This document shows positions 10,189-34,480 of a stretch of DNA of 64,000 nt, one piece after another. Each line of letters begins with the position of its first letter. The stretch's first letter is position 1. The translations under genes and the position numbers were made by a program. The stretch comes from Thermoanaerobaculia bacterium. Lineage in GTDB: Bacteria > Acidobacteriota > Thermoanaerobaculia > Gp7-AA8. The stretch covers positions 5,115 through 69,114 of the forward strand of contig DASPHZ010000014.1 in NCBI GenBank assembly GCA_035629395.1, written 5' to 3'. Under the pieces are notes generated by a model. The model saw nothing but the letters and a program-made list of their open reading frames with translations. It did no database searches and was not told where the DNA came from.

Positions 10189-10226
10189 CGTACGTGCCAT
10201 CTGGCACGATATTGGGTGCCAGATGG
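10185..10226 (+). promoter_or_regulatory. Sigma70-like promoter (TTGACG-17-GATATT) with an operator palindrome GTGCCA-TC-TGGCAC in the spacer and a second half-site (GGTGCCAGATGG) overlapping the antitoxin ATG
   Basis: Read directly: ttgacg tacgtgccatctggcac gatatt gggtgccagATGg. Confidence 0.45.
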
Positions 10227-10693
10227 AAACGACACCAGCAGATGTCGAGCGCTATCGCGAACTGCGCCGCACCACGGCGCGTCCGCATGCCTACGCGGCG
10301 CTGCTCGGCCTCTCCGTTTATGACGCCGAACCGCTGATGAAGGCAATGCACAGAGGCTTCGCGTGGAAGACATTCACGCGCCTCGTCGACAACATCGGTC
10401 TCCCCGCGGATGAGATCGCGAGCGTGCTCGACCTCCCGCTACGCACGCGTGCGCGCCGCAAAGTGGAAGGACGGTTCGGGTCCGATGAATCGGATCGCCT
10501 GCTCCGTCTCGCCCGCGTCTATGCCCGTGCCCTCGACCTCTTCGGCGGTGACCGCAAAGCTGCGTTGCGCTGGCTCACGGAACCGAAGATCGCATTGTCG
10601 GGGGCAATTCCGTTGCACCTCGCGAAGACCGATTTCGGTGCGCGCGAAATCGATGCGACGATCGACCGCATCGAGCACGGCGTGTACATGTAG
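10223..10693 (+). CDS. Xre-like antitoxin of a RES-Xre toxin-antitoxin pair (DUF2384/MbcA-ParS-like)
   Basis: 156 aa. It sits immediately upstream of a RES-domain gene (2-nt gap). The C-terminal region (LTEPKIALSGAIPLHLAKTDFGAREI) is typical of DUF2384 antitoxins. Confidence 0.75.
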   Translation: METTPADVERYRELRRTTARPHAYAALLGLSVYDAEPLMKAMHRGFAWKTFTRLVDNIGLPADEIASVLDLPLRTRARRKVEGRFGSDESDRLLRLARVYARALDLFGGDRKAALRWLTEPKIALSGAIPLHLAKTDFGAREIDATIDRIEHGVYM

Positions 10694-10695
10694 CT

Positions 10696-11157
10696 GTGCT
10701 CACCGCATATCGCATCGTCAAGGCGCGCTACGCGGACGACGCGTTCGCCGGCATCGCTTCGAGGCGCCACGGCGGACGCTGGAACCCTCCCGGCATCCCC
10801 ATCGTGTATACGTCCGCGACGATCTCGCTCGCGGCCCTCGAAACTCTCGCGCACATCGAAAGCACGGTACTCAACGAGTTCGTCGTCATCCAGTGCTGGT
10901 TTCCCGAGGTGCTCGTCGAAGCGATCGAGCTCGCGACTCTACCCGACGGCTGGAGCGCCGTCCCTCCACCCGCAACATTGCAGCAAATCGGATATGAGTG
11001 GTTCACACGCCGCACGTCCGCGGTGCTGCAGGTACCGAGCGTCGTCGTCGATGGACGAGAGTCGAACTATCTGCTCAACCCGGAGCACGAAGACTTCCGC
11101 TCGATCGACATCGGCAGCCCGCAGCCATTCCTCTTCGACTATCGCCTGTTCACTTGA
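10696..11157 (+). CDS. RES-domain toxin (MbcT/ParT-like NAD+-targeting toxin)
   Basis: 153 aa. Conserved R (RRHGGRWNPPG), S (YTSATISLAALE) and E (HIES/EFVV) blocks of RES domains. Its size and position after the Xre antitoxin fit. Confidence 0.8.
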   Translation: MLTAYRIVKARYADDAFAGIASRRHGGRWNPPGIPIVYTSATISLAALETLAHIESTVLNEFVVIQCWFPEVLVEAIELATLPDGWSAVPPPATLQQIGYEWFTRRTSAVLQVPSVVVDGRESNYLLNPEHEDFRSIDIGSPQPFLFDYRLFT

Positions 11158-11804
11158 CCCACCACCCGCCGCGCCGCGAGCATCGCGGGGACGTAGTCCC
11201 GCGTCTCACCGGGGAGCTGGTCCCAGATGCGGTAGTAGTCCGCGTCCGTGCCGGACTCGCGTCCCGTCGCCTCGGTCATGATGCGGGCGACGCGGTTTTC
11301 GCCGGTGTTGTACGCGGCGGCGGCGAGGTACCAGGAGCCGAAGCGGTTGTAGAGCTGCGCCAGATACGTCAGCGCGGCGTCGGTCGATTTCTCGGGGTCG
11401 ATGCGGTCGTCGACGGTTTCGTCGACGCGCAGGCCGTAGCGGCGGGCGGTGTCGGGGACGAGTTGCCAGATGCCGCGGGCATCGGCGGCCGAATGCGCCT
11501 CGGGGTTGAGTCCCGATTCGATCATCGCCAGGTACACGAGATCCTCGGGCATGCCTTTGCGGCGCAGTTTCTCGCGGATCATCGGCGCGTACTGCGGCAT
11601 GCGCTCGACGTACGTCGCGAACTCGGCAGCCTTCTCGCCGGTGGTGAAGCGGGCGACGTGGTACTCGACCCGCTCGTGCGGGAGGTCGGCGAGCTGATCG
11701 CGAGCCGCGGCGGGCGCGGCAGGAGTGGTGGACGGAGCCGAGGTGGTGGATGCAGGGGCGGTGGCGCAGGAAACGAAGAGGAGTGCGAAAAGAGCGCGCT
11801 TCAT
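11139..11804 (-). CDS. Lytic transglycosylase lipoprotein (SLT domain)
   Basis: Lipobox LFVSCA; SLT catalytic motif LAMIESGLNPEAHSAADARGIWQL...YNTG. Confidence 0.8.
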   Translation of the reverse strand: MKRALFALLFVSCATAPASTTSAPSTTPAAPAAARDQLADLPHERVEYHVARFTTGEKAAEFATYVERMPQYAPMIREKLRRKGMPEDLVYLAMIESGLNPEAHSAADARGIWQLVPDTARRYGLRVDETVDDRIDPEKSTDAALTYLAQLYNRFGSWYLAAAAYNTGENRVARIMTEATGRESGTDADYYRIWDQLPGETRDYVPAMLAARRVVGQVNRR

Positions 11805-11823
11805 GAGCAGAAAGAGCGCCAGA

Positions 11824-13317
11824 TCACCTCACCCACCCGTACTGCGTGTTCGACGGCAACCCGCCCGCGGCCCTGTACGTCTGCCGCAGCTTCGTCAGCG
11901 CGTCGTTCGGCAGCGCCCGCAGTTTCGCGGCGGGATCGATGCGATAGATCTTCGCCGCGGAAAGGCCGAACACCTTGCGCTTCACCTCGTCCGTCAGCGG
12001 CTTGAAGCCGAAGCGCTGCATGTACTCCTCCGGCATCTGCAGGCGCCGGAACGCCTCGATCTGCCACTGCGGTGAGCCCCACCAGATCGAGTCCGTCCCC
12101 CACAGCACGTGATCGTCGCCGAACGCGTCGAGCATCATGCCGACGATGTACGCCGCCGCGCGAGGATGCGTCACCGCGACCATGCCGAACGTCGTCCCCA
12201 GTTCCATGTACACGTTCGTCATGCGCGGATTCTGCTTCCGCGCCTCGCACAGATCGGAGATCCACGGCACGTACGTCGTCGTCCTGAAATCATCCTCGGC
12301 CGCCTTCAGCAGATCCTGAATGCCGCGGAAGGCGGCGTGGTAGATGAGGAAGTTCATGTCCGGAAAATCGAGCGCCGCCTTCGGCACGTCGCGCGGGCTG
12401 CTGTGCTCCATGTCCCAGACCGGCAGCGGCAAGCCTTTGTGGACGCAGATGGTCTTGATGCCCACGCGCCGCGAATACTCGTACGCCGGATACGCAACCT
12501 TCTCGTCGTCCATCCACCACCCCCGCCCGTCGTCCGCGAGCGGCTGGCCGGGATAGCCCTTCCACGCCTCGATCTTCAGTTGCTCGACCTGGCGCTGCAT
12601 CTCTTCCATGTTCTGCGTGCCGAGGTCGGGGGAGAAGAGACCGTGGGCGATGAGACGCTGCGAGCGCGCGAGGCCATTCACCTGCGCCCGCGTTTCCACC
12701 ATGTCTGCAGCGGGTAGAACATTTTGACTTTCGGTGCGCGAGGGGAGACCGGTAATGACCGCGACGACGGTGTCGCTGTCGAGGAAGATCTCCTTCACGT
12801 AATTGGCGAGATAGAGGTCGTCCCGTGCGTGCGCGCGTCCTTTGAGCGCCTCGTTGCCCATCATCCCGCCGAACTCGCGGTAGCGCAGCAGCGGCGGCAT
12901 CTCGATGACGCGTCCCGCGGCGACGTGATGGGTCTGGACGTCGAAGATGAACTCCTGCTTCGGCCTTTTTTCCGCCGTCGCCCCCGGCTCCGTCACTTCG
13001 GCCGGATCGACGTCGAACGAGCGGCAGCCGAACACCGCGTTCATCGCCAGGAACGCCGCCGCCATGCCGCCGCTGCTCGCGAGAAAGTGCCGCCGCGACA
13101 CCCCCAGCTTCTTCGCCGCCCCATCCGCGATCTCGTTGAGCTTCGCCTCGACGCGCTGCTGCTCCGGCGTCTGCGCGATCGGGATGAACTCCTCGTTCGA
13201 GACGATCTGCGTCGGGATCGGGAGGAACGTGTTGCGGACCGCGTCGACGTCGCACTTGCGCAGCAGTTTCTTCATGCGCCCCAGTGTCGTGCCGCGCATC
13301 GGCGGCGTTCGCGACAA
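11824..13317 (-). CDS. Amidohydrolase-family metal-dependent hydrolase with Tat signal (RRHFLASSGGMAAAFL)
   Basis: Twin-arginine motif; TIM-barrel amidohydrolase-like length (~480 aa); His/Asp-rich blocks. The start could be M15 (MKKLL). Confidence 0.65.
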   Translation of the reverse strand: MSRTPPMRGTTLGRMKKLLRKCDVDAVRNTFLPIPTQIVSNEEFIPIAQTPEQQRVEAKLNEIADGAAKKLGVSRRHFLASSGGMAAAFLAMNAVFGCRSFDVDPAEVTEPGATAEKRPKQEFIFDVQTHHVAAGRVIEMPPLLRYREFGGMMGNEALKGRAHARDDLYLANYVKEIFLDSDTVVAVITGLPSRTESQNVLPAADMVETRAQVNGLARSQRLIAHGLFSPDLGTQNMEEMQRQVEQLKIEAWKGYPGQPLADDGRGWWMDDEKVAYPAYEYSRRVGIKTICVHKGLPLPVWDMEHSSPRDVPKAALDFPDMNFLIYHAAFRGIQDLLKAAEDDFRTTTYVPWISDLCEARKQNPRMTNVYMELGTTFGMVAVTHPRAAAYIVGMMLDAFGDDHVLWGTDSIWWGSPQWQIEAFRRLQMPEEYMQRFGFKPLTDEVKRKVFGLSAAKIYRIDPAAKLRALPNDALTKLRQTYRAAGGLPSNTQYGWVR

Positions 13318-13330
13318 AGGGATGAACGGT

Positions 13331-14419
13331 CTAGCCCGGAACGGGAACGGCCGCCGGAAGGGAGATCGTGAACACGGAGCCCTGGCCGACGACGCTCTCC
13401 GCGGTCAGCTCTCCGTCCATCGCGCGGGCGAGCTCGCGGGCGATCGCGAGCCCCAGGCCGACTCCACGCTGCGTGGACTCGGTACGCTCCGGATCGAGCT
13501 GTACGAACGGCTCGAAGACGGTCTCGAGCTGCTCGCGCGGGATGCCGACGCCGGAGTCGCGCACGTGAATCCGCACGTTGCTCTCGTCGCGCTCCCCCAG
13601 AATCGCGATCGTGCCGCCCGGCGGCATGAACTTGATGGCGTTGGTGACGAGATTCAGCAGCACCTGCTGGAAGCGGTCGGGGTCGGCGTGCACGAATACG
13701 TCCTCCGCGCAGTCGACGGCGAGTGCGTGTCCCGCCTCCGCGATGCGCTCCCGCAGCAGACGTTCGGTCTGCGCGATCGCCTCCGCCACGCGCACGGGTT
13801 TCACGGCGACTTCGACGTGTCCGGACTCGAGCTTCGCGAACGAGAGGATGTCGTTGATCATCCGCAACTGCGTCGTGCACGCCTCGCGGATCCGCGCGAT
13901 CGCATCCGCCTGCGCCTCGTTCAGCGGCCCATGCATGCCGCCGGCGAGCAGCGCCGCGTTGCCGGAGATCGACGTCAGCGGATTGCGCAGGTCGTGCGAC
14001 ATCATCGAGAGGAACTTCGCTTTCGCCGCATTCGCGCGATCCGCCGCGCGGCGTGCTTCGAGCAATTCGCTCTCGTACTGGAACCGCTGCTGCATCCGCA
14101 CGAAGACGCAGTCGCTGACGAATGCGCCATTGCGCTCGCGACGCAGAGCGTGCATCAGCATCGGCACGTCGGTGCCGTCTTTCGCACGCAGCGTGAGGTA
14201 GATCTCCTCCACGCGCCCTTTCATCTTCAGCAGAGGAAAGAGGTGCGTCTGGTAGAACACGCGTGCGCCGGGCGAAAGGAGTTTCTGCACGTGCCAGCCC
14301 AGGAGCTCGATGCGGGTGGCGCCGAGCTGCGTGGCCAGTGTCGTGTTGATCTCCAGGATCGTGCCGTCGTCCCCCAGCGAGACGAAACCGCAAGGCGCCT
14401 GGTCGAGCAGCGGTTCCAC
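13331..14419 (-). CDS. Cytoplasmic PAS-domain sensor histidine kinase (HisKA + HATPase_c)
   Basis: H-box FLSMMSHDLRNPL; N box LVTNAIKF; G boxes DSGVGIP and GVGLGL; N-terminal PAS-like domain; no TM segments. Confidence 0.8.
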   Translation of the reverse strand: MEPLLDQAPCGFVSLGDDGTILEINTTLATQLGATRIELLGWHVQKLLSPGARVFYQTHLFPLLKMKGRVEEIYLTLRAKDGTDVPMLMHALRRERNGAFVSDCVFVRMQQRFQYESELLEARRAADRANAAKAKFLSMMSHDLRNPLTSISGNAALLAGGMHGPLNEAQADAIARIREACTTQLRMINDILSFAKLESGHVEVAVKPVRVAEAIAQTERLLRERIAEAGHALAVDCAEDVFVHADPDRFQQVLLNLVTNAIKFMPPGGTIAILGERDESNVRIHVRDSGVGIPREQLETVFEPFVQLDPERTESTQRGVGLGLAIARELARAMDGELTAESVVGQGSVFTISLPAAVPVPG

Positions 14420-14420
14420 C

Positions 14421-15221
14421 TCAGGCCCCCGCCAGATACTCCTTCATGAGCGAGATGGTCTCCTCGGGATGGCTGACATGCGGGCAGTGTCCCGTAGCCT
14501 TCATCAACCGCAACGTGCTCTCCGGCGTCACGCGGTGGACATACCGCCCCACCTCCGTGGGCGCAATCGCATCCTCGGCGCACTGCAGGATCAGCGACGG
14601 CACGCGCACGCTCTCGAGATCGCTGCGGTTGTCGGAGAAGAACGTCGCCTCCGCGAATCGCCGCGCGAGCTTCGGATCCGTCGAGCAGAAACTCTCGTGC
14701 AGTTCCTCCGTGAGCTCGGGCCGTTCGGGGTTCTTCATGATCACCGGCGCGAGGAACGTCGCCCAGCCGATGAAGTTCTTGTCCATGAGGTCGAGCAGCC
14801 CTTCGATGTCCTCGCGGGCGAAGCCGCCGTGATACTCGGCGTCGTTGATGTAGCGCGGCGACGGGCCGACCATGATCAGTTTCGCGAACCGCTCCGGCTC
14901 GCGGCCCGCGGCAAGCACGCCCACCATGCTGCTGACGGAGTGGCCGACGAAGATCACGTCGCGCAGGTCGAGCGCTTCGCAGATCTCGAGCACGTCCTGC
15001 GCATAACCGTCGAGCGTCGCGTACCGCTCTTCGTCGTACGCGGAGAGATCGGAGTGGCCGCAGCCGACGTAGTCGAAGAGAACGAGGCGGTAGTCGGCTT
15101 CGAACGCGGGCGTCAGAAAGCGCCACATGTTCTGGTCACAGCCGAAGCCGTGAGCGAACAGCATCGGCTGCGAGCCGCGGCCGAAAACTTTGACGTTGTT
15201 GCGGGCGAGAATGTCAGTCAT
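14421..15221 (-). CDS. RsbQ/D14/KAI2-family alpha/beta hydrolase
   Basis: 266 aa. Nucleophile elbow VGHSVSSM is identical in type to RsbQ/D14/KAI2 (GHSVSAM). Acid (AEDAIAP) and His ([11 protein letters not shown]) complete the triad. Its stop abuts the kinase start (1-nt gap). Confidence 0.85.
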
Positions 15222-15241
15222 CGCCCGCGATCCTATCCGAA

Positions 15242-16876
15242 TTATCTGACTGCCGGGAGCACGTACTGGGGGACGTACTGCCGCTGCGGCACGAACGTCG
15301 CCGGATCGGCGTAGTTGCCGCCGAAAAAGACCACTGCCAGACCGAGCTCAGGGATGCCCATCGAGACCTGGCCGCCGTTCCCGCCGGCAAAATACGCACG
15401 CACTTTGCGGTCGCGGTACGGGAACTCCATCGACCACCATTGATAGCCGTACTGGATGCCGGACAGCTCGTAACGCGGCTTCCACGACGCGCGCACCCAC
15501 TCCGCGCTGACGATCTGTTTTCCGCGCCACTTGCCGCCGTCGAGCATGACCTGGGCAAGCTTGAGGAAATCGCGCGCGCGCAGACGCATGCTGCCGCCCA
15601 TGTAGGCTTCGCCGAGGGGCATGAGCGGGATGGCGTAGCGGCCGAATTGCAGCGGGGCGGCGAGCTTTTCGTGGAAGAGCTCGGGCAGCCAGCGGCCGGT
15701 CTGTTTCGCGACGACGGCGCCGGCGAGATTCGTGTTGATGCTGCAGTACACGGCCGTCTCGCCGGGCGCGCGAATCATGTTCAGTCGCAACGAGTACGCG
15801 ATCTGGTCTTCCTGCTCGGCGACGTTGTCCTCGGCACCGGGCGATTGCGAGTCGCTGTCGTCGCAATCGAGCCCCGAGGCCATGTTGAGGAGATGCTCGA
15901 GCGTCATCGACTGCGCACGCGCGTCGTTCGTCGGCGTCTGCATTGCCGCGTAGACCTTCGTCGACGCGGGGATGTTCGCCGCGCCGGCGAGCATCGAGGC
16001 GACGCTCTTCGCGGCCGAGCGGAGGTCGTGGATCTCCTCGCGATGCGAGCCGTGAAAGTACTCCTCGAGCACGAGCCTGCCGTTGCGCGCGAGGAGCACG
16101 GCGTGAACCTGCTGCGAGCCGAGGGTATCGACGGGATTGTCGAGGATCATCTGCAGGAACTTCGCGAGCGCGGCGCGATCGAGGCCGGCGTCTTCGACGG
16201 TCGCCACGGGCCAGCCGTCGTCTTCGAGCGGCGGTTTGCGATACGCGTATCTGCTGTTCTTCGCGCGCGGATAGAACCGCGCTTCCTCCGCGGGAGTGGC
16301 GCGCTGCAAGTCGTACCAGCCGCCGCGCGCGGGGAAGGCGAGCTGGTCGTCAACGTATTGACCTTCCGTCGAGAACGCGGCGGGGCCGGTGAGCTTCACC
16401 TCCGTTCCGTCGACGGTGATCGCGTCGACGCGCTGAAAGCGGCCGAAGTTGCGCTCGGGATTGCGGAAGAACGTCGCCAGCGTGCCGTCCTCCTTGCGCG
16501 TGACGGGGAGAAAGAGCGTGAGCGTGTCGGCCATCGGCTCGACGTTGCCGCGCCAGCGGTTCGGGCGCTGTTTTTCGAGCGTGACCGGCGTGGCGAAGCG
16601 CGTGCCGGTCAACTGCGTATGCGGCTGGATCCAGTGGCCGGTGATGCGGTCGTGCTGGATCCGGCCGCGGAACGTGCCTTCTTCGTGCGGCAGGTCGAAC
16701 GTGACGCGGTCCTGTTCGACGCGCACGGCGGCTTCGCGTCCGGCGATCTCGGCACGCCAGGCGTCCCCGTCCTTTTCGATGGTCAGCATGCCGTGCACCT
16801 CGGGGCCGAACGATTTCTTCGCATGCCAGAGGCCGGTCACGTCTGCAAGCAAAACGATGAGTGCGAGCGCTTTCAT
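15242..16876 (-). CDS. Exported serine hydrolase of the beta-lactamase/PBP4-like fold
   Basis: Signal peptide [10 protein letters not shown]; SxxK motif (SAAKSV) and the beta-lactamase fold in the C-terminal half. It forms the distal 544 codons of the artefactual 1028-aa ORF 15242..18328. Confidence 0.75.
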
Positions 16877-16883
16877 GGCGTCA

Positions 16884-17674
16884 TCATCGGGACGTTGCAC
16901 GCGCACCGTCTTGTGCGCGCGGAACGTGTTTGTCGCGGCGGAACGCTGCGGGCGTCGTGCCGGTGGCGCGGCGGAACGCGTGCGTGAGCTGGCTCTGGTC
17001 GGAGAATCCGGTTTCGAGTGCGAGCTCGGCGAGCGGGAGGTCGGTCGTGGTGAGGAGAGCGCGCACGCGGTCGATGCGGCAGCGGCGGAGGTACTCGCCC
17101 GGCGAGCAGTCGAAGTACTGACGAAACGCGCGCGCGAGGTGGATGGGATGGACGCGCGCTTCGCGGGCGAGCTCGCGGATCGCGACACGTTCGGTGCAGC
17201 GGTCGTGCAGCGCGTCGCGCACCTGCAGCAGCCAGCGCGGCGCACGTCGGTCCGGATGCGCGAGGCTGCGCGCGAGAAGTCCCGCGAGCTCGAGGCCGAG
17301 TCCTTCGAGGACGAGGTCGGAGAAGGTGGCGGACTGACGCAATTCGCGGCGGGATGGATGGATTCGATGCGGTGGGCGATTTCGGGAACGAAGGAGACGG
17401 CGAAGAATCGTCCGAGGTCGGTGCGGAAGCGGTCGCGATGCGTGGTGCCGGCGGGATTGAAGATGAGCGCGCCCGCGCCGCACTCCCCTTTCCGGTTGCG
17501 CGCTTCGGTCACATACGTGCCGCGCACGACGAAAACGAGATGCGCGACGTCGTGCGTGTGCCGCGGCACTTCCGCGTCCGGGACACGGGCGATGCGCTCG
17601 GCGTATTCGAAGGAAGCAGTGCGCAGCTCTCGCTCCGCGCCACCGAAGAAGGCAGCCCACTCGCGCGAGTACAT
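16884..17674 (-). pseudogene. AraC-family transcriptional regulator interrupted by a single-base frameshift near 17340-17355 (could be a sequencing error)
   Basis: The N-terminal cupin part (MYSREWAAFF...FAVSFVPEIAHRIESIHPAA) is in one frame. The C-terminal AraC HTH (VAIRELAREARVHPIHLARAFRQY...FSDQSQLTHAFRR) is in another. The combined length of ~263 aa is typical. Confidence 0.6.
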
Positions 17675-17851
17675 GCACTGATGTACGTGCGGGACACGGG
17701 GAAGTTGGGCCGGCGCCGGCGGCTCGGTGGAAACACGTGCGGTCGCGGGGAACGCACAGTGCTCCCGTGTGGCGTGCGTTCCGGCCTGGCCAACCAGCGC
17801 TGCCGGCCGCCCCGGCCCACGTCGGGGTCCCGCTCCGGTACGATCGCGCGA

Positions 17852-18517
17852 ATGATTCCGTGGACCCTGCTCGACACCGCGGTCATCCCGGGCGACGGCG
17901 GCGAGATGCGCCTGTACCAGCGCGGCGACGAGTACTCGATCCGCGTCGGGCCGTACGAACTGATGAACAGCCGCGTCCACGCATCGGAGGATGCGCTGGC
18001 GGAGCTCGTGTGCGAGCGCATGGGTGGCAGCAACAGGCGCGTACTCATCGGCGGACTGGGGATGGGGTTCACGCTGACCGCCGTGTTGCAACGCATCGAT
18101 GCGAAGAGCGAAGCGATCGTCGCGGAGCTCGTTCCTGCGGTCGTGGCGTGGCATCGCGGACCGTTGCGCGGCGTATCGAAAGGCGCGCTGGACGATCGGC
18201 GCGTGACCATCCGCGAAGAAGACGTCGCCAGGGTGATCGCCGACGGCGCGTACGACGCGATCCTCCTCGACGTCGACAACGGCCCCGCCGGACTCACGTC
18301 GAAACACAACGATCGCCTCTACACCCACGGCGGGCTGCGGCGCGCGTATGACGCCCTGCGTCCGAAAGGCATCCTCGCCGTCTGGTCCGGCGGTCCGGAC
18401 GACGCGTTCGTGAAGCGCCTCAGACAGACCGGCTTCACGGTCGAAGAAGTGAAGGTCCGCGGTCGCGGCGCGAAAGGCGGCCCGCGCTACGTCATCTGGC
18501 TCGCTTCACGCCCGTGA
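17852..18517 (+). CDS. Spermidine synthase-like (PABS-fold) protein, short form
   Basis: MIPWTLLDT...RVLIGGLGMGFTLTAVLQ...ILLDVDNGP resembles a polyamine aminopropyltransferase/SAM-MTase fold. Confidence 0.55.
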   Translation: MIPWTLLDTAVIPGDGGEMRLYQRGDEYSIRVGPYELMNSRVHASEDALAELVCERMGGSNRRVLIGGLGMGFTLTAVLQRIDAKSEAIVAELVPAVVAWHRGPLRGVSKGALDDRRVTIREEDVARVIADGAYDAILLDVDNGPAGLTSKHNDRLYTHGGLRRAYDALRPKGILAVWSGGPDDAFVKRLRQTGFTVEEVKVRGRGAKGGPRYVIWLASRP

Positions 18518-18854
18518 TCCCGTGTGCCTGCTTCAGCAGATCGCCGATCACCTTCCACGACAGCCCGCTGTCGAGACGCACGCCCAGCCAGCCCGCCTTC
18601 CCCACGTACGGCGGCACGAAGAAATGCTTCGGATCGCCTTCGACGAGCGACTGCTGGGCCCCCTCCGGCGCGTTGCACCACACCGCGACGTGACCGCTGC
18701 CGTGATGGTCGTTGTCGGTGGTGAAGAACATCCGCCCTCGGACGAAGAACGCCGCCTCGCCGTGCGAAAGCTTTTCCGTCACTCCCGGCAACGCCATGGC
18801 AATCGCGCGCACGCGCTCGATCAACTCCGCCGCGTCTACTTTCTTCCGAGCCAT
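18492..18854 (-). CDS. MmcQ/YjbR-family small DNA-binding-like protein
   Basis: 120 aa; conserved GEAAFFVRGRMFF and VGKAGWLGVRL blocks of YjbR-like proteins. Confidence 0.5.
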   Translation of the reverse strand: MARKKVDAAELIERVRAIAMALPGVTEKLSHGEAAFFVRGRMFFTTDNDHHGSGHVAVWCNAPEGAQQSLVEGDPKHFFVPPYVGKAGWLGVRLDSGLSWKVIGDLLKQAHGITGVKRAR

Positions 18855-32038: not shown

Positions 32039-32217
32039 GCAGAACGCATTCGCTCCGCCAACAAAACGGATGATCGACGAGGCCGATGCGGCGAGTCGTT
32101 TCATCTGCCGACGTCGTTCCGACGCGGGAGTCCCGCCCGCCGCCGTCGTCGTGCATCTTTCGAATTCTCCGCGCGGAATCGCAATGCGCGCTCCGCGTAC
32201 ACGTACACTTGCGGGCG

Positions 32218-33786
32218 ATGCGGTCCGCTCCCGCACCCCTTCGTGCACTCGTGCTGCAACTGCTTCTGCTCGCCCTCGCGCTGGGGGTCGTCGCGGCGTT
32301 GCAGTACCGCTGGATCCGCCGCGTGAGCGTCGTCGAGCACGAGCGGATGCGCGCGCAGCTCGAAGCCTCGGCGAGAGACCTCGCGCTCGACGTCAGCCGC
32401 GAGTTCCGCGTCGTATTCGAGACCTTCCTCAAACCCGAACGCGCGGACCTCGTGCCCATCGTCGAGCGCTGGTTCACCGAAGCGGACCATCCCGGCCTCG
32501 TCCGCACCGTCTACACCGCGGATCGCGACGGTGACGTGTGGACGCTGCGCGTGTTCGACGCTCGATCGCGCGCCTTCGTCGAAGCGGAATGGCCGCCCGC
32601 ATTCGCCGAGTTGCGCGAATCGCTCGCCACCCTCGGCGACCGCGGTCCCGATCCGCGCTGGCCTCCTCCTTTCTTCGAGCGCGTGCCGGCGCTGTTCATC
32701 GTGCAGTTGCCCGCGCGGATGACACCGGAGTTCCTGATCGGACGTCCGCGCCGCGTGGTCCTCATCCAGGTCGATTTGCAGGTGCTCGAACAGAAGATCC
32801 TGCCCGCCCTCGCGGCGCGGCATCTCGGCCACGGCGCCGAGGTCGCGCTGCTCGGTCGGGGTGAGCGCAAAACGGCGGACGTGCTCGTGCCGGTGCAGAC
32901 CATCCCGCGGCGCCGTCCCGACCCGCCGCTGCGCGACCGCCCCGCCCCACCACCCGCGTGGCAACTCGCCGTCACGCCTCCCGGCGGCGGCATCGACGCC
33001 GCGGTGCGGAAAGCGACGCGCCGCAATCTCGCCATCAGCGGCGCGGTCCTCGGCCTCCTCGCCATCGCAGGTCTCGCACTCATCGCGCTGCTGCGCCGCG
33101 GCGAGCGTCTGCGCGAACGGCAGGCGCAGTTCGTGGCCGCGCTCAGTCACGAGCTCAACACCCCGCTGGCCGCACTGCGCCTCGCCGGCGAGAACCTCGA
33201 GGACGGCCTGGCGCAGGATCCGGAGAAACTCGCGCGTTACGCGCAGACGATCGTCAAGGAATCGACGCGCCTCAGCGACATGGTCGGCGAAGTGCTCGCA
33301 CTCTCCGGCATGCGCGCGCCGCGACGCGCGACTCCTCGCGAGCCGGTGAACGTCGCCAAGATCGTCGATGACGCCGTCGCGCAATGCCGCGCGGCCATCC
33401 GCAACGTGGTCCCGATCGAAGTCCGCGTCGAAGCGAACCTGCCGCAGATCCAGGCCAACGACGCGGCCATCACGCGTGCGGTGCAGAACCTCGTCGCGAA
33501 CGCGTTGCGCCACGGCGGCGACACGATCGGCGTGCACGCGCGGCGCAACGGCAATGGCGTGACGATCGCCATCGAGGATCGCGGACCGGGTGTCGCGCCC
33601 GACGACGTGCCGCATCTCTTCGAGCCCTTCTATCGCGGACGCAACACCACCGCGAAAGGGACCGGCCTCGGGCTCACGATCGTCCAGGAGATCGTGGCCG
33701 ATCACGGCGGCACGGTCGAATACCAGGCACGCAGCGGAGGCGGCTCCGTCTTCGTCATTCATCTGCCGGGAGAGCCGCATGCCTGA
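32218..33786 (+). CDS. Membrane sensor histidine kinase (2 TM, periplasmic sensor, HisKA, HATPase)
   Basis: H box LSHELNTPL; N/G boxes (NLVANALRHG, DRGPGV, GTGLGL); two TM helices. I chose the start at MRSAPAPLRALVLQLLLL. Confidence 0.8.
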   Translation: MRSAPAPLRALVLQLLLLALALGVVAALQYRWIRRVSVVEHERMRAQLEASARDLALDVSREFRVVFETFLKPERADLVPIVERWFTEADHPGLVRTVYTADRDGDVWTLRVFDARSRAFVEAEWPPAFAELRESLATLGDRGPDPRWPPPFFERVPALFIVQLPARMTPEFLIGRPRRVVLIQVDLQVLEQKILPALAARHLGHGAEVALLGRGERKTADVLVPVQTIPRRRPDPPLRDRPAPPPAWQLAVTPPGGGIDAAVRKATRRNLAISGAVLGLLAIAGLALIALLRRGERLRERQAQFVAALSHELNTPLAALRLAGENLEDGLAQDPEKLARYAQTIVKESTRLSDMVGEVLALSGMRAPRRATPREPVNVAKIVDDAVAQCRAAIRNVVPIEVRVEANLPQIQANDAAITRAVQNLVANALRHGGDTIGVHARRNGNGVTIAIEDRGPGVAPDDVPHLFEPFYRGRNTTAKGTGLGLTIVQEIVADHGGTVEYQARSGGGSVFVIHLPGEPHA

Positions 33787-34480
33787 AGCGCGCACGGGAC
33801 GGCTGCTGCTCGTCGAAGATGAGGAGAGTCTCGCCTTCGCCCTCGAAGACCGGCTCACGCGCGAAGGGCACAACGTCACGCTCGCGCGCGACGGCGTCAC
33901 GGCAATGGAGCTCGCGACGAGCCGCGCGTTCGACATGATCATTCTCGACGTCACCCTGCCGCGCAAGGATGGCTTCGCGGTCTGCGCGGAACTGCGCGAG
34001 AGCCACGTGCGCACGCCCATCCTGATGCTCACCGCCCGCGCCGGCGTGAACGATCGCGTCCGCGGTCTCCGCCTCGGCGCCGACGACTATCTCGCCAAAC
34101 CGTTCGCGACCATCGAGCTGCTCGCGCGCATCGAAGCGCTGCTGCGCCGCGCGCCGGCGCGGCCCGCGTCGACGGAGACATTCGTCGCCGGCGACGTCAC
34201 CGTCGACTTCGTGCACGGCACCGCCACGCGCGCGGACACGCCGCTGCAGATGTCGCCGCTGGAGATGAAACTGCTGCGCTACCTCGCCGAGCGCCGCGGC
34301 CTCGTGGTCAGCCGCGACGAGCTGCTCGAAAAGGTGTGGGGACACGCGGCGGGACTGGCCACGCGCACGGTCGACGTGCACATCGCCTCGCTGCGCCAGA
34401 AGCTCGAGCGGAATCCCGCGCAGCCGGAAGTGATTCAGACGGTGTACGGAGCGGGTTACTCCATTCCGGAAACCTCATGA
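33779..34480 (+). CDS. OmpR-family response regulator
   Basis: Receiver with D54-like MIILDVTLP; C-terminal trans_reg_C (MSPLEMKLLRYLAERRGLVVSRDELLEKVWG). Overlaps the kinase stop by 8 nt. Confidence 0.85.
   Translation: MPEARTGRLLLVEDEESLAFALEDRLTREGHNVTLARDGVTAMELATSRAFDMIILDVTLPRKDGFAVCAELRESHVRTPILMLTARAGVNDRVRGLRLGADDYLAKPFATIELLARIEALLRRAPARPASTETFVAGDVTVDFVHGTATRADTPLQMSPLEMKLLRYLAERRGLVVSRDELLEKVWGHAAGLATRTVDVHIASLRQKLERNPAQPEVIQTVYGAGYSIPETS

Follow-up and report, generated by a model that had tools for sequence, protein, structure and literature searches.

What does an RsbQ-like hydrolase gene accomplish when the gene directly behind it encodes a histidine kinase, and has such a pairing been seen before? 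The RsbQ family matters because bacterial RsbQ is regarded as the ancestor of the plant KAI2/D14 receptors, and because RsbQ proteins bind butenolides. The present pair lies in a 64,000-nucleotide stretch of bacterial DNA, which is referred to here as the window. As set out below, the pair probably constitutes a bipartite RsbQ-PAS sensor that works in the cytoplasm and has a histidine kinase output, and the regulator that it would address appears to lie elsewhere in the genome.

Gene structure and gene junction

Two open reading frames, both on the minus strand, are confirmed where the original prediction had placed them:

14421..15221, minus strand: RsbQ-like alpha/beta hydrolase gene (266 aa, ATG start, TGA stop at 14421-14423)
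13331..14419, minus strand: soluble PAS-HisKA-HATPase histidine kinase gene (362 aa, GTG start)
14417..14423, minus strand: gene junction ...GCC TGA G GTG GAA... (hydrolase stop, one spacer nucleotide at 14420, kinase GTG)

The predicted 1-nt gap between hydrolase stop and kinase start is borne out both by direct reading of the sequence and by the independent gene calls for the source metagenome contig (ENA ERZ27257310 k141_2155567), which specify identical 266-aa and 362-aa products separated by the same single nucleotide. The GTG start of the kinase is supported by homology, since the kinase so begun aligns from its first residue with the first residue of an RsbP-like protein of Bacillus type; and third-position GC, at 0.87-0.88 in the hydrolase and kinase frames, fits the expectation for real genes in a genome of 67% GC. 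An antisense ORF (12947..14449, plus strand) that a GC3-based caller preferred over the kinase is judged spurious, homology and the ENA gene calls both favoring the kinase. A single transcript probably yields both the hydrolase and the kinase, and the transcription unit may extend beyond the pair because the upstream same-strand beta-lactamase-family gene ends only 20 nt before the hydrolase start; promoter, terminator, and Rfam scans of positions 11000-18600 returned nothing informative.

The hydrolase groups with RsbQ and the plant receptors

The best solved relative of the hydrolase is B. subtilis RsbQ (PDB 1WOM), with 61% identity (161 of 265 positions; E 4.9e-114, 383 bits). Ranked by bit score, the solved relatives run from RsbQ (383) through Olei00960 (277) and the KAI2/D14/HTL proteins (156-204) to the first unrelated alpha/beta hydrolase (61), so that the RsbQ/KAI2/D14 clade stands more than 95 bits (156 versus 61) above any other hydrolase. 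The Pfam matches are to Abhydrolase_6 and Abhydrolase_1, and NCBIfam gives weak matches to enol-lactonase and BioH, all of them far under cut-off. By sequence, then, the protein is a member of the RsbQ/KAI2/D14 clade, as had been proposed, and by bit scores it does not group with generic esterases.

The nucleophile elbow and Asp/His triad on which the original assignment had been based are present, each catalytic residue aligning to its RsbQ counterpart (S95, D217, and H245 to RsbQ S96, D219, and H247):

14931..14945, minus strand: nucleophile elbow G93-H-S95-V-S97, followed by S-M; S95 is the catalytic Ser by sequence reading and alignment to RsbQ S96
14571..14573, minus strand: codon for catalytic Asp217, by alignment to RsbQ D219
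14487..14489, minus strand: codon for catalytic His245, by alignment to RsbQ H247

The pocket also appears to be conserved. Specifically, i) F26, Y124, L142, and F195 are identical in the alignment to F27, Y125, L144, and F197, the RsbQ pocket residues as listed in a published paper; and ii) judging from a single one-residue indel across 265 aligned positions, the helical cap should have the same length as in RsbQ. Both B. subtilis and Stenotrophomonas rhizophila RsbQ bind and hydrolyze synthetic butenolides, leaving a covalent adduct on the catalytic His, the residue equivalent to H245; these two RsbQ proteins and the plant receptors are the only ones for which butenolide hydrolysis with such a His adduct is on record.

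The kinase begins with an RsbP-type PAS domain

The kinase opens with a PAS domain (Pfam match to residues 4-92) that resembles the PAS domain of RsbP, the B. subtilis partner of RsbQ:

14096..14419, minus strand: RsbP-PAS-type domain, residues 1-108, the most N-terminal domain of the kinase (alignment to P0013; AlphaFold2 pLDDT >93)
14219..14272, minus strand: predicted F-alpha helix, residues 50-67, containing R53, F55, H59, and P62 (AlphaFold2)

The alignment to P0013, a Bacillus-type RsbP-like PAS-PPM protein, is gap-free from residue 1, with 45% identity and E 1e-41; RsbP residue numbers used here are those of P0013 (chosen from P0012-P0015) rather than of B. subtilis 168 RsbP itself. Ten positions have been published as specific to the RsbP-PAS class, namely C10, a hydrophobic residue at 13, L48, a basic residue at 53, F55, position 56, H or Y at 59, P62, E72, and P86 (PMC3183031), and the kinase has the full set of signature residues (C10, V13, L48, R53, F55, Y56, H59, P62, E72, and P86). 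A motif search found no DIT motif (D[IV]T) anywhere in the kinase protein. Among 76 aligned PAS proteins (75 homologs and the window kinase), F55 and E72 never vary, and conservation reaches at least 90% at R53, H59, and P62; in nearly all of the best 150 PAS library matches, the RsbP-PAS domain is likewise the most N-terminal. A PDB search of solved PAS structures turned up no RsbP-PAS structure, the best PAS match having E 2.6e-4, and a word-index protein search with the window PAS domain gave 11 fragmentary matches, none of them a named RsbP.

We conclude from these alignments that the kinase PAS domain is homologous, not merely analogous, to RsbP-PAS. The original comparison with RsbQ-RsbP thus holds as to the relation, but the word "analogous" was too weak, since the whole input module is homologous, its PAS domain being an RsbP-PAS domain. 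Direct binding of RsbQ to RsbP-PAS has been demonstrated only for B. subtilis RsbQ-RsbP, where the RsbP substitutions F55A and Y59A abolish both RsbQ binding and signaling (PMC3183031); by analogy, the F-alpha helix is probably the hydrolase-contact surface of the window kinase.

Linker and kinase output

Beyond the PAS domain the protein continues into a helical linker and standard kinase domains:

13943..14086, minus strand: predicted continuous signaling helix, residues 112-159, which starts where the PAS domain ends, spans the linker, and becomes DHp helix 1 (AlphaFold2)
13994..13996, minus strand: codon for the phospho-acceptor His142 in the H box SHDLRNPL (motif search; within Pfam HisKA)
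13352..13684, minus strand: HATPase_c domain, residues 246-356, with N box at 256, G1 at 288, F at 302, and G2 at 319 (Pfam and motif search)

The helix is taken from a monomer model built on a shallow 21-sequence alignment, in which the catalytic domain is of low confidence. Four linker residues are conserved (R112, E116, A122, and A126), three of them (R112, E116, and A126) without variation across the 76 aligned PAS proteins. In all 41 canonical HisKA sequences (40 homologs and the window kinase), E116 is separated from the phospho-acceptor His by 26+7n residues; the distances found are 26, 47, 54, 61, 75, 82, and 96 residues, every one of them 5 modulo 7. Linkers that change length in steps of seven fit the expectation for a coiled coil.

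The output domains are HisKA (residues 132-200, 1.2e-18) and HATPase_c (residues 246-356, 4e-30) by Pfam; the protein matches solved histidine kinases at E 3e-33; and none of the H, N, G1, F, and G2 boxes is disrupted. The original description of a PAS-HisKA-HATPase kinase lacking transmembrane segments is upheld by these domain matches and by hydropathy, the maximum 19-residue Kyte-Doolittle value being only 1.32. Pfam finds no PPM (SpoIIE/PP2C) phosphatase domain in the kinase. The protein therefore has the input module of an RsbP but is not an RsbP, its output being HisKA and HATPase_c with no PPM.

Conservation of the pair and its surroundings

At least 588 relatives of the hydrolase occur in species-representative genomes, and PAS representatives at E<=1e-10 number about 1,600. 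Lack of conservation of the pairing in related genomes had been named as a refutation of the original prediction, and the pairing is conserved: in 77 of the 80 closest loci (the best 80 of the hydrolase relatives), a PAS gene lies directly downstream of the hydrolase on the same strand, and two of the three loci that lack one are contig ends. These 80 loci are drawn from Acidobacteriota, Gemmatimonadota, Bacteroidota, Cyanobacteria, Verrucomicrobiota, Chloroflexota, and Myxococcota, and across seven or more phyla the hydrolase relatives have a median identity of 70%. Stop-to-start spacing in the related loci is mostly -23 to +35 nt, with frequent overlaps of 1 or 4 nt. HATPase_c is the output in 63 of 76 PAS proteins (75 downstream proteins and the window kinase), GGDEF in 5, and STAS in 2, and the kinase class appears to be the commonest output class in soil phyla.

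The surroundings of the pair are a different matter, flanking genes being unconserved even in the closest locus. In the window the pair sits within a run of six same-strand genes, 1-31 nt apart, encoding AraC, beta-lactamase-family, hydrolase, kinase, amidohydrolase, and SLT proteins, and across the roughly 12.8 kb surrounding the pair no gene for a STAS, anti-sigma, or sigma-factor protein appears among the domain calls. The kinase had been called an orphan, and it is one: no response regulator is adjacent or fused to it, and the only receiver domain found across the 64-kb window belongs to an OmpR-type regulator (33590..34480, plus strand) that is about 19 kb off and directly behind its own kinase (32086..33786, plus strand). 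The closest clades are likewise orphan; in Bacteroidota relatives a single-domain receiver adjoins the kinase, an arrangement that hints at a CheY-like partner, and in Pyrinomonadaceae relatives the receiver is fused to it.

A known sensor family

The original prediction regarded the coupling of an RsbQ-like hydrolase to a PAS histidine kinase as poorly described wiring, and here the literature says otherwise. In PLoS One in 2011, Nadezhdin, Brody and Price presented 45 RsbQ-PAS pairs whose outputs are PPM phosphatases, histidine kinases, or diguanylate cyclases (GGDEF) (PMC3183031), and an eLife paper of 2025 repeats the description of the module (PMC12143880). The hydrolase-PAS-kinase pairing has been known since 2011 and is common in soil bacteria, and there is nothing new in kind at this locus. 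As of 2011, the target of the module was known for B. subtilis only (PMC3183031), and our literature search found no experimental study of any member of the kinase class.

Proposed mechanism and alternative explanations

From B. subtilis RsbQ-RsbP and related proteins we infer direct contact between hydrolase and PAS domain, the class of ligand, and the direction of regulation. We suggest that i) the hydrolase and kinase would be co-produced, probably from the single transcript proposed above; ii) a small hydrophobic molecule, most likely a butenolide-like lactone, would enter the capped Ser-Asp-His pocket of the hydrolase; iii) the hydrolase, depending on whether its pocket is occupied or covalently modified, would dock differently on the PAS domain (at its F-alpha face) and on the first part of the linker, much as RsbQ sits against PAS domain and linker in an AlphaFold2 model of a 2RsbP/2RsbQ complex (PMC12143880); iv) the change in docking would pass along a dimeric coiled coil that runs unbroken into the DHp helix; v) the change in the coiled coil would set the autophosphorylation of His142; and vi) the phosphoryl group would pass to a response regulator whose gene lies in another part of the genome.

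The strongest competing explanation concerns the ligand rather than the machinery. The module could report an endogenous metabolite of metabolism or energy state, as traditionally assumed for B. subtilis RsbQP, rather than an exogenous plant or microbial butenolide; exogenous synthetic butenolides only inhibit, and do not activate, RsbQ signaling in B. subtilis (Melville et al.), the same authors suggest an endogenous and possibly non-enzymically formed ligand, and both window proteins are cytoplasmic. The median identity of 70% among hydrolases of seven or more phyla would suit equally well a metabolite that is universal and a signal that is common in the environment, and we regard an endogenous ligand as a real possibility that falls somewhat short of an even chance.

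A second explanation would reverse the roles of the two proteins: the PAS domain would be the true sensor, and the hydrolase an accessory enzyme that converts a precursor and hands the product or cofactor to the PAS pocket, catalysis being essential (Model 1 of Nadezhdin et al.). Catalytic-triad mutants of B. subtilis RsbQ are indeed null (PMC3183031), the triad is fully conserved in the window hydrolase, and the unusual conservation of the F-alpha helix could reflect a shared PAS ligand. However, Ala substitutions at Q53 and C56, which face the pocket in the authors' computed PAS model, have no effect, whereas substitutions at the modeled outward-facing residues F55 and Y59 are null and break RsbQ binding (PMC3183031); the plant homologs and RsbQ work by ligand-induced conformational change, with a covalent His adduct on the hydrolase; and a protein-protein interaction model is the most plausible one according to Melville et al. 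We therefore consider a sensing PAS domain unlikely.

A more ambitious version of the preferred reading would make the orphan RsbQ-PAS kinase of soil Acidobacteriota and Gemmatimonadota a cytoplasmic receptor for plant or microbial butenolides (strigolactone, karrikin, or KL-like) that feeds a phosphorelay, a bacterial counterpart of KAI2/D14. The rhizosphere of strigolactone-deficient rice is depleted in Acidobacteria (cited by Melville et al.), and such a receptor, if true, might help explain the depletion; we think it improbable as stated and offer it as speculation.

Finally, the idea that the hydrolase has an ordinary catabolic role, as the esterase or lactonase of an AraC/beta-lactamase-family/amidohydrolase cluster, with incidental adjacency to the kinase, can draw on the tight spacing of the six same-strand genes and on the sub-threshold enol-lactonase and BioH matches, but is rejected as very improbable and largely refuted by synteny, because the beta-lactamase-family, AraC, and amidohydrolase genes recur in none of the 80 related loci while the hydrolase-PAS pair is kept in nearly all, the NCBIfam matches are all far under cut-off, and the hydrolase is closely similar to a signaling protein, RsbQ.

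Comparison with known systems

Having weighed these alternatives, we return to the RsbQ-PAS sensor of the kinase class and to the systems that it most resembles. Olei00960 of Oleispira antarctica (PDB 3QVM) ranks second among the solved relatives of the hydrolase (277 bits, E 1.3e-81) and resembles it less than B. subtilis RsbQ does; its PDB entry is titled only "Olei00960". LuxP-LuxQ of Vibrio harveyi, an analogy drawn by Nadezhdin et al. (PMC3183031), is alike in that a separate ligand-binding protein contacts PAS domains and controls a histidine kinase; however, LuxP is periplasmic and non-catalytic, LuxQ is a membrane kinase, and neither is homologous to the window proteins.

Plant KAI2/D14 receptors share with the hydrolase the alpha/beta-hydrolase clade (156-204 bits), the triad, the capped hydrophobic pocket, and the residues F26, Y124, and L142, which are common to RsbQ and KAI2; the difference lies in the partner, which is the MAX2 F-box/SMXL proteolysis machinery in plants and the PAS domain of a kinase in the window. 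Closer still is B. subtilis RsbQ-RsbP, with a hydrolase 61% identical to that of the window and an adjacent, bicistronic-style gene pair; the PAS domain and linker start are 45% identical to those of the Bacillus-type RsbP-like protein and share its residue numbering, but the output is a HisKA/HATPase kinase instead of a PPM phosphatase. That difference may make the kinase class a convenient test system, suited to ligand screening, because autophosphorylation in vitro is an easier read-out than the sigma-B partner-switching cascade.

The best match is the RsbQ-PAS module itself (PMC3183031), with which the window pair shares i) a hydrolase gene directly upstream; ii) an N-terminal RsbP-PAS domain with the signature residues and no DIT motif; iii) a helical linker; and iv) a histidine kinase output. 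It differs in its host, apparently an uncultured Thermoanaerobaculia-like member of the Acidobacteriota known from a metagenome, and in a kinase that has no adjacent or fused receiver. Since the module was described in 2011, the window locus is best regarded as one further member of a known sensor family, and as one example among many RsbQ-PAS modules.

The hydrolase-kinase gene pair

Two minus-strand genes span 13331-15221 of the window:

15221..14421, minus strand: RsbQ-like alpha/beta hydrolase gene, 266-aa ORF with an ATG start
14419..13331, minus strand: PAS histidine kinase gene, 362-aa ORF with a GTG start

At the junction the sequence is GCC-TGA-G-GTG, and the 1-nt gap reported between hydrolase stop and kinase start is therefore exact. 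Independent gene calls on the ENA metagenome contig that contains the window (ERZ27257310, k141_2155567; 97,950 bp) give the identical two products with identical spacing, and GC at third codon positions is 0.88 in the hydrolase and 0.87 in the kinase (window GC 67%); the gene pair of the original prediction is thus confirmed in every detail. An overlapping plus-strand ORF (12947..14449) was set aside as a gene, because its codon-position GC (0.77/0.48/0.75) is less gene-like than that of the kinase frame (0.71/0.43/0.87) and because it is missing from the ENA gene calls on that contig; most probably the high GC content has produced it as an artefact.

Identity of the hydrolase

Among all solved structures the top match to the hydrolase is Bacillus subtilis RsbQ (1WOM; E 4.9e-114, 383 bits), followed by Oleispira Olei00960 (277 bits); some 55 plant KAI2/D14/HTL/DAD2 chains match at 156-204 bits, and the first match outside the RsbQ/KAI2/D14 clade falls to 61 bits, placing the protein in the RsbQ/D14 clade, as had been proposed, and not with generic esterases or dehalogenases. 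Hydrolase and RsbQ are identical at 161/265 positions (61%) with one single-residue indel; the elbow G93-H-S95-V-S97-S-M, D217, and H245 align with RsbQ S96/D219/H247; and F26, Y124, L142, and F195 are the same residues as the pocket residues stressed for RsbQ by Melville et al. (F27, Y125, L144, and F197, the last of which occludes the pocket). NCBIfam gave sub-threshold matches only (enol-lactonase, BioH, and similar families). Judged by its sequence, the hydrolase is a predicted RsbQ.

The kinase input domain is of the RsbP type

Pfam places PAS at residues 4-92 of the kinase, HisKA at 132-200, and HATPase_c at 246-356; the H box is SHDLRNPL (His142), the kinase also has its N, G1, F, and G2 boxes, and hydropathy over the protein reveals no hydrophobic segment. 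Residues 1-129 align gap-free, residue 1 on residue 1, with P0013, a 305-aa Bacillus-type protein used here as an RsbP stand-in (PAS plus PF07228 PPM phosphatase; source name "phosphoserine phosphatase RsbU/P"), at 45% identity, 71% positives, and E 1e-41, so that RsbP residue numbers carry straight over to the window kinase. The RsbP-PAS signature is C10, L13, L48, Q53 (consensus basic), F55, C56, Y59 (consensus H/Y), E72, and P86, with a conserved P62 and a missing DIT motif (PMC3183031); the window kinase has C10, V13, L48, R53, F55, Y56, H59, P62, E72, and P86, and a motif search of the protein found no DIT motif. Across 76 aligned proteins (the window kinase and 75 homologues) P9, N25, F55, T58, and E72 are invariant in the PAS domain, as are R112, E116, and A126 in the linker, and conservation of R53, H59, and P62 is 90% or higher. 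The wiring had been called analogous to RsbQ-RsbP; given the gap-free match and the signature residues, the entire input module is instead homologous.

Conservation of the pairing and diversity of outputs

A search of one genome per species returned at least 588 hydrolase relatives. In the 80 best loci (L001-L080; 64-81% identity to the window hydrolase), found in Thermoanaerobaculia, other Acidobacteriota, Gemmatimonadota, Bacteroidota, Cyanobacteria, Verrucomicrobiota, Chloroflexota, and Myxococcota, an RsbP-PAS-like domain starts about 0-330 nt 3' of the hydrolase on the same strand in 77, so the pairing is conserved in related genomes. Between hydrolase stop and PAS gene start most loci have -23 to +35 nt, and 1-nt or 4-nt overlaps are frequent. 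Two of the other three loci are contig ends; the third, the Pseudanabaena MAG locus L065, is the only informative one that has no RsbP-PAS after the hydrolase (at 2025), a receiver domain beginning there about 226 nt 3' with several further receivers close by. Median identity is 70% for the hydrolase and 48% for the PAS domain, so of all parts of the module the hydrolase is under the tightest constraint.

Outputs of the 76 PAS proteins by Pfam (the window kinase and 75 proteins encoded downstream of related hydrolases)
HATPase_c: 63/76 (57 also HisKA, 7 also receiver)
GAF-GGDEF: 5/76
STAS: 2/76

One STAS case, in a Pyrinomonadaceae MAG (L037:2834-3619, plus strand), is a hydrolase followed by a 262-aa protein of RsbP-PAS, conserved linker, and STAS (Pfam STAS 3.1e-13); a second Pyrinomonadaceae MAG (L034:1782-2549) probably has the same architecture.

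The family has many members: PAS plus linker (residues 1-130), searched against the full library, matched 1,607 representatives clustered at 50% identity (E<=1e-10), and in almost every one the match is N-terminal. Unlike the rest of the family, a few very large proteins, P0143 (4799 aa), P0147 (2098 aa), P0024 (974 aa), and P0026 (1076 aa), carry 4-12 repeated internal matches at 29-35% identity.

Periodicity of the linker

E116 and the phospho-accepting His lie 26 residues apart in the window kinase and 25 homologues, and 47, 54, 61, 75, 82, or 96 residues apart in the remaining homologues with the canonical H box (S-H-E/D-L-R-x-P-L). The separation equals 26+7n in 41/41 canonical HisKA sequences; with six independent length classes, chance alone would give this pattern with a probability of about (1/7)^6. 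In the other H-box type, from Bacteroidota (T-H-D-L-Q-E-P-L-R-K), the separation is fixed at 57 in 21/21 proteins. The module is thus coupled to two DHp types, each with its own fixed helical register. An AlphaFold2 monomer model of the kinase has a PAS domain at pLDDT >93 (F-alpha, residues 50-67), one unbroken helix (112-159) running through linker and His142, and a catalytic domain at low confidence. The linker acts like a coiled coil.

Receivers and gene neighborhood

A receiver-domain profile built from hybrid homologues found one receiver in the 64-kb window, within a separate conventional two-component pair (32086-34480, plus strand):

32086..33786, plus strand: HisKA/HATPase kinase, overlapping or abutting the next ORF
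33590..34480, plus strand: OmpR-type regulator, directly behind that kinase

The PAS kinase is accordingly an orphan with no adjacent response regulator, as first suggested. Receivers are likewise missing within 6 kb on either side in the most similar Thermoanaerobaculia and Gemmatimonadota loci. Among the Bacteroidota loci examined, the pair adjoins a separate gene for a single-domain (CheY-like) receiver of roughly 130-150 aa, and in Pyrinomonadaceae the receiver is fused to the kinase; this placement is a hint as to what kind of partner regulator to seek.

Receiver position by lineage
Bacteroidota, immediately downstream of the kinase: L028, L035, L039, L047, L049, L053, L062, L064, L070, L080
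Bacteroidota, upstream, before the hydrolase: L044, L056, L063, L067, L069
Pyrinomonadaceae, fused to the kinase: L010, L012, L014, L015, L018, L020, L073

The neighbors of the window pair include:

10223-10693, plus strand: Xre-like antitoxin (PF20432 + PF09722)
10696-11157, plus strand: RES-domain toxin (PF08808)
11824-13299, minus strand: Amidohydro_2-family gene, 31 nt 3' of the kinase
15242-16876, minus strand: beta-lactamase-family serine hydrolase, 544 aa, ending 20 nt before the RsbQ-like gene
16884-17342, minus strand: short AraC-type regulator, 7 nt upstream of the beta-lactamase-family gene

None of these occurs in any of the 80 related loci; the only recurring flanking genes are SLT and M14 peptidase genes, in the closest locus (L001), where SLT directly follows the kinase. 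The toxin-antitoxin pair (10223-11157) lies between the SLT and M14 genes and is probably a recent insertion, since L001 keeps both genes without it. In this genome the beta-lactamase-family and AraC-type genes may be co-transcribed with the sensor pair.

Relation to the known RsbQ-PAS module

The proposed hydrolase-PAS-kinase sensor is right in kind, but the wiring is not new. Nadezhdin, Brody and Price (2011) described 45 cases of adjacent RsbQ and RsbP-PAS genes, the output being a PPM phosphatase, a histidine kinase, or a diguanylate cyclase. They showed that RsbQ binding requires PAS, that PAS alone suffices for it, and that both binding and signalling are lost with F55A, and they proposed two sensing models (PMC3183031). 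A 2025 eLife paper on RsbU restated that in various phyla the module drives kinases and GGDEF cyclases, and its AlphaFold2 2RsbP/2RsbQ model seats RsbQ on the PAS domain and linker (PMC12143880). We found no experimental studies of kinase-class members in the literature. B. subtilis RsbQ binds and hydrolyses GR24 and dGR24, leaving a covalent His adduct, and its signalling is inhibited by exogenous butenolides (Melville et al.), which are therefore not mimics of the native ligand; Stenotrophomonas rhizophila RsbQ has similar butenolide chemistry (Wang et al.). We conclude that the proposed sensor rediscovers a module already in print, to which the window pair belongs, and that a butenolide-like ligand is a candidate only.

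Three minor additions are new here: i) the way receivers differ by lineage, being absent, adjacent, or fused; ii) the linker's strict heptad periodicity which, together with the continuous helix, agrees with signal transmission through a rigid helix, as proposed for PAS kinases and the RsbQ-PAS module; and iii) the STAS-output variant, which lies outside the three outputs listed in 2011 and would link the sensor straight into a partner-switching pathway.
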